From the UHGV virus genome UHGV-0140731: DNA of 20,682 bases, one strand, 5' to 3'. Shown here piece by piece: positions 1 to 17,605 of the stretch. A program made the position numbers and the translations under genes. The DNA is from a virus. The number at the start of each line of letters is the position of its first letter. Within the stretch, counting starts at the first letter, position 1. The notes below the pieces were generated by a model. That model was given only the letters and a program-made list of their open reading frames with translations, made no database searches and was not told the DNA's origin.

Positions 1-194
1 CCTCGCCCATCATCCCAGCCACGGATAAACTCACCGCGTAAATCAGGTAATTTTAACGTTGGGTAAACCTTTGCCAGATTTGGGTACTTTTCAGAAGAAA
101 ATGCTGCACCATTGCATTTCAGCCACCCCGTTGGAGGTGTGGCTGAGGGCCATGGAACAGGTACACCAACGGGCAGTGCCGAGCCTTCCCCCAA
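1..194 (-). CDS. Partial tail-fiber tip cassette (tail-collar box, 5' portion only; continues past window start)
   Basis: Bases 1-225 are near-identical by eye to 1031-1255 and similar to 517-741. The minus-strand frame from TTG 192-194 reads GEGSALPVGVPVPWP... as in the other cassettes. No ATG or Shine-Dalgarno; the ORF runs off the window. Confidence 0.45.
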   Translation of the reverse strand, partial: MGEGSALPVGVPVPWPSATPPTGWLKCNGAAFSSEKYPNLAKVYPTLKLPDLRGEFIRGWDDGR

Positions 195-204
195 ACCAAC
201 GTTT

Positions 205-711
205 TCATGCTGCCCTTACGATGTAATTAAACGCAATGTTGCGTGGGCGGTTTTCGTTTGCAGTTGGAACAATTTTTGAAGCATCAAGGCCAATCACTTT
301 TGGGTAAACAGCGCCGTCTGTCCTTTCTGTCACCATACTTCTGACTAAGGAAAAATAACTATTGTTCGTTGAGGGGTTCAAAGGCACTACTGCCCCCTTA
401 AACGAGCCTACTGATTCCCATATTGAATAATTTTCAGTATTTACAGTCTTGAACTCACCATAGATATTACGTATGGCATCACCTTGAGCGGATAATATTG
501 TTCTCCCCGCATCCACACCACGTCCGTCATCCCAGCCGCGAATAAACTCACCGCGTAAATCCGGTAATTTATTGGTGGGATAAGCCTTTGCCAGTTCTGG
601 GTATTCTTCAGCAGAAAAAGCTGCTCCGTTGCATTTTAGCCAGCCTGTTGGCGGAGTGGCTGAGGGCCACGGAACGGGCACACCAACAGGCAGTGCAGAG
701 CCTTCCCCCAA
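205..711 (-). CDS. Tail-fiber C-terminal tip cassette with phage tail-collar domain (168 codons); probably a silent cassette
   Basis: N-terminal ~70 aa (PVPWP..PTGWLKCNGAAFS..LPDLRGEFIRGWDD) fit the tail-collar signature (GWL.C.G ... LPDLRG). Central ~70 aa are divergent; C-terminus RPRNIAFNYIVRAA is conserved. Called start is TTG 709-711 with no Shine-Dalgarno; the frame is open upstream only to TAA 733-735. Confidence 0.6.
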   Translation of the reverse strand: MGEGSALPVGVPVPWPSATPPTGWLKCNGAAFSAEEYPELAKAYPTNKLPDLRGEFIRGWDDGRGVDAGRTILSAQGDAIRNIYGEFKTVNTENYSIWESVGSFKGAVVPLNPSTNNSYFSLVRSMVTERTDGAVYPKVIGLDASKIVPTANENRPRNIAFNYIVRAA

Positions 712-721
712 ACCAACGTTT

Positions 722-1195
722 TTATGTGGCCCTTACAATGTAATTAAAAGCAACGTTGCGGGGGCGCATTGATATCCATGCCCCGGTAAAATTATCCTCT
801 GCCGTCCTTTGAGTGCCTGTTATGGAGTTATCTGATGATGCTGGAACATAATCGCTATTATTTCCTGCTTTAGGATTAGCAGGGTTTCCAACAGTTATAA
901 CAGAATCAGCAGTAGCATAAGCGATACCTACTTTGACATTAGTATTCAGATCGTAACCGTAATAATCCTGCAAAGCTGTACGAATAAATGTTGCAGTCTG
1001 ACCACTTAGCAATGAACGCCCTGTATCAATCCCTCTCGAATCATCCCAACCACGGATAAACTCACCGCGTAAATCAGGTAATTTTAACGTTGGGTAAACC
1101 TTTGCCAGATTTGGGTACTTTTCAGAAGAAAATGCTGCACCATTGCATTTCAGCCACCCCGTTGGCGGTGTTTCTAAGGGCCACGGAACGGGCAC
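722..1195 (-). CDS. Tail-fiber C-terminal tip cassette with phage tail-collar domain (157 codons); probably a silent cassette
   Basis: Same conserved N-terminal collar box and C-terminal RPRNVAFNYIVRAT with a different central core. Start is GTG 1193-1195 with no Shine-Dalgarno; the frame stays open upstream to 1246 and encodes the junction residues GLGEGSALPVGV found in the full-length fiber. Confidence 0.6.
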   Translation of the reverse strand: MPVPWPLETPPTGWLKCNGAAFSSEKYPNLAKVYPTLKLPDLRGEFIRGWDDSRGIDTGRSLLSGQTATFIRTALQDYYGYDLNTNVKVGIAYATADSVITVGNPANPKAGNNSDYVPASSDNSITGTQRTAEDNFTGAWISMRPRNVAFNYIVRAT

Positions 1196-1235
1196 GCCAA
1201 CGGGCAGCGCCGAGCCTTCCCCTAAACCAACGTTT

Positions 1236-15734: not shown

Positions 15735-15843
15735 AGCCAGCCACAAATCCACATTGAAAAACGCCTTATACAAAAAAACCTGCCAGCGAACTGACAGGTT
15801 TCTGAGCAGATCGACCAACCCGATCTGGATCGGACTGGAAAAA

Positions 15844-15860
15844 TTTGCTCTAATAAATTT
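15844..15860. promoter_or_regulatory. P1 C1-repressor-type operator (TTTGCTCTAATAAATTT) upstream of kilA
   Basis: Shares TGCTCTAATAAATTT exactly with the site at 13705-13721; lies ~70 bp upstream of the kilA start and overlaps a weak candidate promoter (TTGCTC-17-TAAGTG). Confidence 0.55.
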
Positions 15861-15929
15861 CGTTTTCTAAGTGCAAAGAATCACCATTTCGAGCTGGTGA
15901 TTGAAGGTTGATGCAAATTTGGAGAAAAA

Positions 15930-16730
15930 ATGCAACAAACATTCAATGCGGATATGAATATATCAAACCTTCATCAAAATGTCGATCCTTCAACCACTCT
16001 GCCCGTTATTTGTGGTGTTGAAATTACGACCGACCGCGCTGGCCGTTACAACCTTAATGCTCTACACAGAGCGAGCGGACTCGGTGCCCATAAAGCGCCA
16101 GCTCAATGGCTAAGAACGCAGTCAGCCAAACAGCTCATCGAAGAGCTTGAAAAAGAAACTATGCAGAATTGCATAGTTTCGTTCGAAGGTCGTGGCGGCG
16201 GCACTTTTGCCCATGAATTGCTCGCTGTGGAATACGCAGGCTGGATTTCTCCCGCATTTCGGCTGAAGGTAAACCAGACATTTATCGACTATCGAGCCGG
16301 AAGATTACAACCTGCTATTCCGCAGAGTCTCCCTGAAGCTCTCCGTTTGGCTGCCGACCTGGCAGAGCAAAAGCAACGGCTGGAGCAAAAAATGCTTATG
16401 GATGCACCTAAAGTCGAATTCGCCGAACGCGTTGCTACCGCCAGCGGGGTTCTAATCGGCAACTATGCCAAAGTGCTCGGCCTGGGCCAAAACTATCTCT
16501 TCACCTGGTTGCGTGATAACGGAATTCTGATCGCAACCGGTGAACGCAGGAACGTCCCCAAACAAGAATACATATCCCGTGGGTACTTCACCCTCAAAGA
16601 AACCGTGATCGATACAAGCAACGGAAGCAGGATTTCTTTCACGACTCGTATAACCGGCAAAGGTCAGCAGTGGCTAATGAAGCGATTGCTTGATGCTGGT
16701 GTGCTGGTACCTGTCGCGGCCACGCGCTAA
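15930..16730 (+). CDS. kilA: KilA (KilA-N domain plus KilAC/ANT C-terminal domain)
   Basis: 266-codon ORF with GGAG 5 nt upstream; C-terminal domain paralogous to Ant; size and position (operator, then kilA, then a 281-codon gene) match the P1 lytic replicon as I recall it. Confidence 0.7.
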   Translation: MQQTFNADMNISNLHQNVDPSTTLPVICGVEITTDRAGRYNLNALHRASGLGAHKAPAQWLRTQSAKQLIEELEKETMQNCIVSFEGRGGGTFAHELLAVEYAGWISPAFRLKVNQTFIDYRAGRLQPAIPQSLPEALRLAADLAEQKQRLEQKMLMDAPKVEFAERVATASGVLIGNYAKVLGLGQNYLFTWLRDNGILIATGERRNVPKQEYISRGYFTLKETVIDTSNGSRISFTTRITGKGQQWLMKRLLDAGVLVPVAATR

Positions 16731-16759
16731 CAGACGTAGTAAGAACCACCAGCATTGTA

Positions 16760-17605
16760 ATGCTGGCTAAAGTCACTTTCCTGAGCTGTATAACGATGAG
16801 CGATTTTACTTTTTCTGGCTATGAATTGGCCTGCTTTGTAACACACTCCGGTCTATCCCGTAGCGCCGGGCATATCCTGTCGCAATGTGCAAATCTCGCG
16901 GCAACAACCAGTGAATACTTCATTCACAAGCCTCACCGCATGATTGCGGCAGAAACTGGTTATAGCCAATCAACCGTCGTTCGCGCATTCCGTGAAGCTG
17001 TAAACAAAGGAATCCTGTCGGTAGAGATTGTTATCGGCGAGCACCGTGAACGTCGCGCTAACCTGTACCGGTTTACACCATCCTTTTTGGCCTTTGCTCA
17101 ACAAGCCAAAAATGCGCTAATTGAAAGCAAATTAAAGATCTCTTCAGCCGCAACCAAGGTTAAAGCAGTTCTCGCTAAGACATTGGCTTTATTTGATTTT
17201 TTATCCACACCCCCATGTCAAAATGATACCCCCTCCCCCTGTCAGGATGACGTGGCAATAAAGAATAAGAAGTCACAAGTTAAAAAAACAAAAAGATCAG
17301 TTTCCGGCGGTGCCGGAACGACCAGACTCAAAAAATTGACTTCATGGATCGCTGAGGCAAAAGCAAAGGCTGACAATCTGCGGTTATCCAAAAAACGCGC
17401 TCAAAAACATGAGTTCAAGCAGAAAGTAGAGGCGGCAGCGCGGAAATATGCTTACCTGAAGAACAAGCGTTCTCCTGATATTGGCGGGGTATCAAACTTC
17501 GATAATCTGCCGCATTGCATGACGGTAAACGAAGCTCTTAATGCGGTTTTAGCCAAAAATAAAGATAACGAACAATGGGGTATACCGGCAGGATTCAGAG
17601 GGTGA
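16760..17605 (+). CDS. repL: RepL-like lytic replication protein (HTH-containing)
   Basis: 281-codon ORF immediately after kilA; helix-turn-helix-like segment AAETGYSQSTVVRAFREAVNKGIL. Assignment is by context and size; weak Shine-Dalgarno, start uncertain (ATG 16760 or 16796). Confidence 0.5.
   Translation: MLAKVTFLSCITMSDFTFSGYELACFVTHSGLSRSAGHILSQCANLAATTSEYFIHKPHRMIAAETGYSQSTVVRAFREAVNKGILSVEIVIGEHRERRANLYRFTPSFLAFAQQAKNALIESKLKISSAATKVKAVLAKTLALFDFLSTPPCQNDTPSPCQDDVAIKNKKSQVKKTKRSVSGGAGTTRLKKLTSWIAEAKAKADNLRLSKKRAQKHEFKQKVEAAARKYAYLKNKRSPDIGGVSNFDNLPHCMTVNEALNAVLAKNKDNEQWGIPAGFRG

Follow-up and report, generated by a model that had tools for sequence, protein, structure and literature searches.

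A P1-type contig with an incomplete cassette array

We analysed a DNA stretch of 20682 nt (hereafter the window), which is a whole metagenome contig (ENA ERZ652502 NODE_139). Positions 1962-17605 are P1-type DNA, in which tblastn located 14 P1 proteins at 84-100% identity and in the order and orientation of P1: S (residues 1-252), R, gp16, BplA, PmgA, Sit, PmgB, Tub, PmgC, the N-terminus of SimA, Icd, Ant1, KilA and RepL. By megablast, ~16 kb (~1971-18084) were 96-98% identical at the nucleotide level to P1, P7 and many P1-like plasmids. The window as one piece had no record in complete E. coli genomes (n=5,426) or PLSDB plasmids, and tblastn with P1 proteins gave no match in the window for cin, U, U', simB/C or rlfA/B. 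The IncY-type replicon and partition genes (repA, parAB) and c1 would be located beyond the 20.7-kb contig. Judged by its sequence, the contig is an ordinary fragment of a P1-family phage-plasmid (Punavirus lineage); its placement in the P1 lineage by the initial annotation thus agrees with the whole-contig comparison. The following features lie outside the fibre array:

2729..3163, minus strand: R, tail-fibre structure or assembly protein (98.6% identity to P1 R)
3194..3212, minus strand: late promoter LPs, predicted to drive R and S (exact match to P1 LPs)
3242..11404, minus strand: gp16, bplA, pmgA, sit, pmgB, tub and pmgC, the baseplate and tail module (84-100% amino acid identity to P1)
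11558..13635, minus strand: low-GC replacement of simB/simC (GC 0.33; family scans)
11558-12535, minus strand: SH3-domain protein within this replacement
12522-13028, minus strand: YfjT-like protein within this replacement
13117-13635, minus strand: simA N-terminus fusion within this replacement
13705..15289, plus strand: ImmI region with operator Oc4, c4 a1b1 target, C4 RNA, icd and ant1/2
13705-13721: operator Oc4 (exact match to P1)
13782-13834: c4 a1b1 target (Rfam)
13902-13987: C4 RNA (Rfam)
15844..17605, plus strand: operator OrepL, kilA and repL, the lytic replicon
15844-15860: operator OrepL (exact match to P1)

The promoter LPsit has one mismatch to that of P1, and Pfam matches in the baseplate and tail module were SLT, Gp6-like and Phage_P1_Gp16. 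The exact operators Oc4 and OrepL and the Rfam matches to C4 and its a1b1 target bear out the C1-type operators and the C4 circuit that had been read from the sequence. PADLOC gave no match for the low-GC genes replacing simB/simC; these genes are also present in pLAO38.

The fibre gene and its tip cassettes

The left end of the window holds the fibre gene S and the cassettes beyond it:

1236..2717, minus strand: tail-fibre gene S, 493 aa, composed of a constant part Sc (1668-2717) and the in-frame tip cassette A (1236-1667)
1802..2065, minus strand: tandem pair of 132-nt shaft repeats, equivalent to element a1 among the P1 repeats and to Phage_fiber_2 repeats (repeat scan, P1 annotation of a0/a1, Pfam)
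722..1228, minus strand: silent tip cassette E, 168 codons from the crossover core, without ATG or promoter (Collar, E=1.6e-14)
205..714, minus strand: silent tip cassette K, 169 codons (Collar, E=8.5e-16)
1..197, minus strand: partial cassette J, first 65 codons (contig end inside the conserved collar repeat)

Residues 1-252 of P1 S were 94% identical to the window S (tblastn). In the window S, Pfam identified Phage_fiber_2 repeats (E=2e-49) and, at the C-terminus, a Collar domain (E=2e-14), which it did not find in P1's own S. The tip is homologous to the receptor-binding tip of T4 gp37 (PDB 2XGF, E=2.6e-15), and the homology extends to the terminal NIAFNYIVR motif.

Beyond S lie two and a half promoterless Collar cassettes in direct orientation, and the two ORFs that follow S gave Collar as their only domain. 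There are four copies of a 249-nt unit, at 1, 518, 1032 and 1471, with 77-92% identity. A tail-collar tip followed by direct-repeat cassettes, as initially described, is therefore present, and the tip is indeed not the Sv/U - Sv'/U' C segment of P1, to whose Sv, U and U' there is no homology. In the window every cassette reading frame and every site is intact, and translation from every crossover core proceeds from GLGEGSALPVG... to a stop codon. Cassette E consists of a Collar domain and a variable end, and the same type follows A in the P1-like loci L003 and L001. Other P1-like plasmids encode a protein identical to that of K, at different positions and in either orientation, including directly beside the invertase gene.

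Crossover sites at the cassette boundaries

The mix sites of plasmid p15B, six in the published table, were taken from Table 3 of PMC3241671. The authors of plasmid pMCR_SCKP-LL83 report 99% identity between its 5-kb segment and the min region of p15B (PMC5786510), and this plasmid served as the sequence proxy for p15B. We found four 26-bp Din-family crossover sites in the window, one per cassette start (186, 703, 1217 and 1656):

1656..1681, plus strand: Sc/variable junction site, TTCCCCTAAACC AA GGTAATCAAGAA (one mismatch to p15B mixQ''R')
1217..1242, plus strand: A/E site, TTCCCCTAAACC AA CGTTTTCATGCC (one mismatch to p15B mixO''P')
703..728, plus strand: E/K site, TTCCCCCAAACC AA CGTTTTTATGTG (identical to p15B mixN''O')
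186..211, plus strand: K/J site, TTCCCCCAAACC AA CGTTTTCATGCT (three differences from the nearest published mix sites)

Mismatches to the published p15B sites thus number 1, 1, 0 and 3, in the order listed. The 17-nt core pattern occurs four times in the window, against zero occurrences expected by chance. The junction site encodes ..DYLGLGE.. in frame on the minus strand, has 21/26 bases in common with P1 cixR, whose position in S is at the same YLGL codons, and is identical in 26/26 positions to that of pMCR_SCKP-LL83. The right half of the A/E site holds the stop codon of cassette A. Identical copies of the K/J site are present in the sister loci L001 and L007. All four window sites share one orientation and the contig ends inside the array.

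The array and its invertase in sister plasmids

A tblastn search of the window found neither an invertase gene nor a tail-fibre assembly gene; as the contig ends within the array, the invertase gene is not visible. We therefore have four same-orientation sites and neither gene, and nothing within the window alone could invert. The same or a near-identical fibre gene is present in four P1-like plasmids that are complete or nearly so, and three NCBI P1-like plasmid contigs (L003, L004 and L006) encode an identical 493-aa S. The P1-like sister contigs with the same fibre gene are 91-97 kb in size. In the four sister plasmids the array goes on, and its further part holds cassettes in inverted orientation, a single gene for tail-fibre assembly and a serine invertase. 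The array of L003 has nine sites, seven of them oriented one way and two the opposite way, together with one Caudo_TAP gene and a gene for a Resolvase/HTH_7 protein, the latter gene lying beside lydC-lydA-lydB-darA, the position of cin in P1. The same architecture was found in pMCR_SCKP-LL83, and sites occur in both orientations in the sister plasmids with identical S. Complete sister arrays have 8-9 sites.

The invertase (Resolvase + HTH_7) was present in all sister loci examined. It has 190 aa, is 74% identical to P1 Cin and identical in six sister plasmids, and the 5' end of its gene has an 83% match to the P1 recombinational enhancer. The site adjoining the invertase gene reads ..AGTCTT, and the terminal site is also written ..CGTTTTAGTCTT.

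L003 and L004 have eight cassette types in common. Seven of these are identical at the DNA level, and the eighth differs by two bases or is cut short by an insertion. The order and orientation of the cassettes differ between the two plasmids (the block H-B-F, for example, is inverted), and half-sites reassort exactly at the AA core. Between plasmids, identical variable parts are also found with different 5' collar segments, with 9-38 differences in the first 210 nt and 0 in the 3' parts. It follows that homologous recombination also reshuffles the array and that not all of the diversity stems from the invertase.

These results bear on the proposal of the initial annotation that the element may have a different solution to host-range switching, lacking Cin and cix. 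This proposal is not supported: the cassette boundaries are Din sites homologous to cix, and the sister plasmids carry a Cin homologue in the cin position. The search for cin and cix that it had called for was successful for cix-like sites, which are present at all four boundaries in the window; cin is absent from the window and the 74% Cin homologue is located in sister replicons. In sister replicons with an identical fibre, an intact Cin-type system serves this fibre, while the window contig stops inside the array.

The right-hand end of the contig

The last 2.6 kb of the window (from about 18022) are E. coli Qin-prophage sequence and not P1 DNA. The transition lies in the following feature:

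17915..18085, plus strand: sok/hok leader that switches from plasmid-type to chromosomal-type (Rfam sok, 116 bits; three-way alignment)

In the three-way alignment, the P1-type and the Qin DNA meet within a 41-bp stretch of identity. This P1/chromosome junction was absent from all 5,426 complete E. coli genomes and from PLSDB plasmids. Its location in the 41-bp identity and its presence in none of the 5,426 genomes are typical of a chimeric join, and the join of Qin-prophage DNA to P1 DNA is probably a chimeric assembly. The P1-like element might truly join the chromosomal Qin prophage via hok/sok homology, i.e. be an integrated P1-type prophage. With the junction on record in neither genomes nor plasmids, the right-hand join cannot be validated.

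Min-type inversion as the very likely source of tip variation

We conclude that the fibre tip is very likely varied by a Min-type multi-cassette inversion, a close sibling of the P1 Cin switch and not a new mechanism. This reading draws on the crossover sites and their homology to mix and cix, the anatomy of the cassettes, the invertase of the sister replicons and the rearrangement of identical cassettes between replicons. With the same high confidence, the window would represent the tail, immunity (ImmI) and lytic-replicon segment together with the promoter-proximal part of a Min-type array at its left end.

In the proposed mechanism, LPs would transcribe R and S. S would consist of a P1-type constant 5' part and one of many short 3' cassettes, joined at a 26-bp site encoding YLGLG. 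Each cassette would form a tip like that of T4 gp37, with a collar domain, a variable receptor-binding stretch and a conserved C-terminal strand. The other half of the site would be the end of the preceding cassette, including its stop codon. Since the site halves are cassette ends, no spacers separate the cassettes, and those that are silent lack a start codon or promoter. A Din-family serine invertase, Min, presumably encoded just past the far end of the array and outside the contig, would recombine pairs of inverted sites, and every inversion would fuse another cassette to the constant part and flip everything between. Cassettes E, K and J, direct and downstream of the expressed A, would be passengers of the last inversion, and their expression would take two successive inversions. 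The impression of pure direct repeats arises only because what the window covers is the proximal part of one isomer. A population would thereby contain virions with many alternative fibre tips. The element probably still has an active invertase, and the tips would be expected to change receptor specificity and to confer differing host ranges.

Variation could in principle be independent of an invertase, if RecA-type gene conversion or deletion via the ~250-nt collar region moved silent cassettes into the expressed gene, as in pilin-type antigenic variation. The window has direct repeats only, and the mosaic 5' collars (9-38 differences in the first 210 nt with identical 3' parts) show that homologous exchange occurs. 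However, a 26-bp site lies at each cassette boundary, 3/4 of these being exact or near-exact mix sites, and same-fibre sister replicons have inverted cassettes and an adjacent Cin-family invertase. Moreover, the rearranged identical cassettes of L003 and L004, with half-sites swapped at the AA core, are a signature of site-specific inversion and not one of conversion. We consider RecA-type conversion as the explanation extremely unlikely. It is quite unlikely, too, that, in addition to inversion by Min, the conserved collar segment of ~200 nt with which every cassette starts is a second, homology-driven exchange zone that recombines heads and tails of cassettes, so that purely direct arrays could vary without an invertase, or that the P1-Qin join is real.

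The element sampled could also be a remnant, truncated or integrated, that has no working invertase. The array would then have been severed from the invertase by truncation or chromosomal integration, cassette A would be fixed as the fibre tip and the rest would be dead cargo. The invertase gene was not found in the window, the right end runs into Qin-prophage DNA, and damage to cin or to the C-segment region is on record for P1-like plasmids (PMC6906374). But the left end stops inside a repeat, where short-read assemblers break, which is no evidence of truncation, and all cassette frames and sites are intact; the chromosomal junction, for its part, was found in 0/5,426 complete E. coli genomes and lies inside the 41-bp identity. 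Such a frozen state is very unlikely, and Min-type inversion remains the reading that we prefer.

Relation to known systems

Multiple inversion by Min was reportedly described by Iida, Sandmeier, Arber and colleagues in 1990-1992 for plasmid p15B of E. coli 15T-, and multi-cassette fibre switching in P1-related plasmids is thus already known since that work. Like the sister loci of the window, p15B is a P1-related replicon with a Din-family invertase; between R-S and lydC, the position common to both, a constant 5' fibre part is combined with alternative short 3' cassettes. Its 26-bp sites recur here, with 0-1 mismatch for 3/4 of them, and so do its terminal sites (..GGTAATCAAGAA next to Sc and, in the sister loci, ..AGTCTT beside the invertase). 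The fusion gene of p15B encodes 739-762 aa; a smaller number of shaft repeats makes that of the window shorter (493 aa). The complete sister arrays hold more cassettes (8-9, with as many sites) than the six mix sites listed for the p15B prototype. In the window there are just four sites, each of them direct, and a min gene is absent.

Such multi-cassette switching was later noticed in mcr-1 plasmids as well, and among sequenced P1-like plasmids of E. coli it is common. Short-read assemblies break at the arrays, and annotation routinely lists the cassettes as separate 'phage tail proteins'. For predictions of the host range or the spread of P1-like phage-plasmids that carry resistance, the fibre gene should be treated as a population of isomers and not as a single sequence.

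The P1 Cin/C segment (relatives: Gin/G of Mu and Pin/P of e14) uses the same recombinase family (74% identity to Cin in the sister loci) and the same crossover position (YLGL, 21/26 to cixR), and inversion likewise swaps the 3' end of the fibre gene. P1, however, has two sites and two long Sv ends (~530 aa) with a U chaperone gene each, whereas the arrays described here have many sites, Collar cassettes of ~145-170 aa and a single Tfa-type gene on one cassette. The locus is not a classical C segment: it shows no homology to U, U' or P1 Sv, has at least four sites and its tip is a Collar domain.

The R64/IncI shufflon is also a multi-segment inversion cluster that provides alternative C-termini of one adhesin gene, but Rci is a tyrosine recombinase acting at sfx sites, its target is the PilV pilus adhesin, and the systems are not homologous. 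A tyrosine-recombinase shufflon was dropped as a candidate, as the sites are Din-type, and so was a diversity-generating retroelement, with no reverse transcriptase or template repeat. Compared with the long tail fibre tip of T4 gp37 (2XGF), the needle and head are far shorter and cassette-specific, and most cassettes have no gp38-type adhesin/chaperone beside them; the likeness lies in the collar domain and the C-terminal NIAFNYIVR strand of each cassette.

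Cassette array at the tip of the S fibre

The window carries a tail fibre gene, S, with the following associated sites (positions in the window).

1236-2717, minus strand: fibre gene S, 493 aa, P1 S-like for 252 residues and ending in a Pfam Collar domain
186, plus strand: site three positions off the nearest mix sites of p15B
703, plus strand: site identical to p15B mixN''O'
1217, plus strand: site one base off p15B mixO''P'
1656, plus strand: site at the junction of the constant (Sc) and variable parts of S, one base off p15B mixQ''R'

The Collar domain is absent from P1's own S, and an additional 132-nt shaft repeat (1802-2065) follows the P1-like part. 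The S tip and the receptor-binding tip of T4 gp37 (PDB 2XGF) are homologues (E=2.6e-15), and the likeness extends to the terminal NIAFNYIVR strand. 3' of S, and oriented like it, are two full reading frames with a Collar domain alone and an incomplete third. Underlying them is a 249-nt direct repeat in four copies. This bears out the tail-collar module followed by direct-repeat cassettes of the initial annotation. Fibre shaft length differed between plasmids, from 3 to 12 Phage_fiber_2 stretches: the window S has three, and the 949-aa S of a related plasmid (L001:9469-12318) has twelve, with the same N-terminus and the same type of tip cassette.

Every cassette opens with a 26-bp sequence of the form TTCCCCYAAACC-AA-SGT..., for which the chance expectation was none. 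The reference set for these site comparisons was Table 3 of PMC3241671, a published compilation of Din-family sites. At the junction, 21 of 26 bases agree with P1 cixR, and the site falls on the same YLGL codons of S where the P1 C segment starts. Translation from each core reads GLGEGSALPVGVPVPWP... and stays open until a stop codon within the next site; each site therefore joins one cassette's end to the beginning of its neighbour.

Invertase of the sister replicons

The exact 493-aa S protein was found on three NCBI contigs of 91-97 kb (L003, L004 and L006), all P1-like plasmids. Of the nine sites in the L003 array, seven are oriented as in S and two are inverted; the single Caudo_TAP gene of the array goes with an inverted cassette. 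Adjoining lydC-lydA-lydB-darA in L003, at the position of cin in P1, is a 190-aa Resolvase/HTH_7 protein with 74% identity to Cin. This invertase was identical in six sister plasmids, and its exact sequence was present on at least 1,000 contigs. The start of the sister invertase gene matched the P1 recombinational enhancer at 83%, and the invertase-adjacent site in the sister loci ends in ..AGTCTT, like p15B mixMl''L'. Plasmid pMCR_SCKP-LL83 shares the layout of the sister arrays and has exactly the junction site of the window; its A-E-K cassette stretch has 95.7% identity to window 506-1672. According to its authors, a 5-kb segment of this plasmid matches the min region of p15B with 99% identity at 92% coverage (PMC5786510).

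In L004 (GCA_019297465.1), which encodes the same S protein as the window, an ISApl1-mcr-1-pap2-ISApl1 composite transposon lies within the fibre cassette array (L004:9068-13721), with one cassette truncated. The enhancer region of the invertase gene recurs, with 89% identity to that of P1, beyond this gene on the opposite strand (L003:16311-16373, L004:17714-17776, L001:4466-4528). This second copy is probably the truncated pseudo-invertase (psi-win) reported beside min in p15B.

Rearrangement of the array

L003 and L004 have eight cassette types in common. Seven showed no nucleotide differences, and the other differs at two bases or is shortened by insertion. Cassette order and orientation differed between the two plasmids; the block of cassettes H-B-F shares the strand of S in L003, and in L004 its order is reversed and it lies on the other strand. 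Sites exchange halves at the AA core: the left one moves with the cassette, and the right one remains with the end of the preceding cassette or the fixed flank. In other plasmids cassette K, its protein unchanged, adjoins the invertase, lies second from it or is opposite to S. Between replicons, the L003/L004 rearrangements and the placements of cassette K are evidence that inversion actually occurs. The window element very probably carries a Min-type multiple inversion system. All four sites of its visible array have the same orientation. That the array is a frozen remnant is unlikely.

Homology also contributes. We compared window 1236-1667 and 722-1228 with the cassette arrays of L001, L003, L004 and L007. 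Cassettes with identical 3' variable parts (0 mismatches) differed between plasmids at 9-38 of their first 210 nt, and these collar-head differences form blocks common to other cassettes (e.g. PLETPP vs PSATPP). Differing 5' heads on identical variable parts imply that, besides crossover at the mix core, gene conversion or recombination between homologous stretches of the conserved collar region also reshuffles the array. A purely homology-driven mechanism is nevertheless very improbable.

Aided by Fis and the enhancer, Din invertases (established for Hin, Gin and Cin) recombine sites that are inverted and mostly ignore direct ones. In the Min-type system, an inverted cassette would be fused to Sc when its leading site recombines with the junction site, and all DNA in between would be flipped. 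Since the enzymes act on inverted sites and inversion flips the intervening DNA, the direct cassettes E, K and J (J partial) behind the expressed cassette A would be passengers of an earlier inversion, and expression of any of them would take two steps. The window shows a single isomer of the array's proximal part. Its array end falls in the conserved collar repeat, and such a break is expected of short-read assembly across a repeated, probably heterogeneous region.

Relation to the P1 C segment

The initial annotation had proposed a different solution from that of P1. This holds for the tip: no homology to Sv/U was found in the window tip, and it differs from the P1 C segment in having more than two sites and a Collar domain. 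It does not hold for the mechanism, as the enzyme (seen in the sister replicons) and the sites are homologous to those of P1 and act at the same place in S. The fibre-variation system of the window was already described in 1990-1992, in p15B, a plasmid related to P1. In comparative studies, lydC-cin-Sv'-U'-U-S figures among the known variable regions of P1-like phage-plasmids (PMC9603915; PMC6906374).

P1 backbone and right end

The window covers one metagenome contig from end to end (ENA ERZ652502 NODE_139_length_20682_cov_7.78), so whatever is missing at its ends reflects assembly and not biology. In megablast searches of phage, plasmid and complete E. coli genome sequences, ~1971-18084 matched P1 and P7 as well as hundreds of P1-like plasmids at 96-98% identity. 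Using tblastn, we matched the P1 proteins S (residues 1-252), R, gp16, BplA, PmgA, Sit, PmgB, Tub, PmgC, SimA (N-terminus), Icd, Ant1, KilA and RepL (84-100% identity across all P1 matches), with order and orientation as in P1. P1 promoter LPsit has one mismatch.

3194-3212: P1 late promoter LPs, exactly conserved
13705-13721: P1 operator Oc4, exactly conserved
13782-13834: a1b1 target of C4 RNA (Rfam)
13902-13987: C4 antisense RNA (Rfam)
15844-15860: P1 operator OrepL, exactly conserved
17915-18085: sok/hok leader (Rfam sok)
18159-19472: ISNCY/ISEsa1 transposase gene, in the Qin-prophage part of the right end

The megablast matches, protein order, exact operators and C4 RNA confirm the gene order and P1 lineage assigned initially.

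From ~18022 on, the sequence is no longer P1 DNA and matches the E. coli chromosome at 99% identity. In this chromosomal part ISNCY/ISEsa1 is inserted at the hok start codon, and the Qin-prophage genes ydfW, flxA and ydfV come next. Plasmid-type sequence gives way to chromosome-type sequence inside a 41-bp identical stretch (~17980-18022) in the sok/hok leader, and this junction was not found in 5,426 complete E. coli genomes or in PLSDB plasmids. On the simplest reading the join is probably a chimeric metagenome assembly; it is possibly a real plasmid-chromosome recombinant.

P1 rlfA, rlfB and pmgF are absent after repL (17606-17902). A single 70-aa ORF (17690-17902), its function unknown, separates repL from hok/sok, an arrangement common to many P1-like plasmids. 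In place of P1 simB/simC is a low-GC (0.33) block of genes of unknown function (11558-13635), for which PADLOC gave no defence-system match. The block encodes:

a 325-aa SH3-domain protein (phrog_7086)
a 168-aa YfjT-like protein (phrog_3429)
a 172-aa protein whose first 50 residues are those of SimA

Plasmid pLAO38 carries the same low-GC genes.
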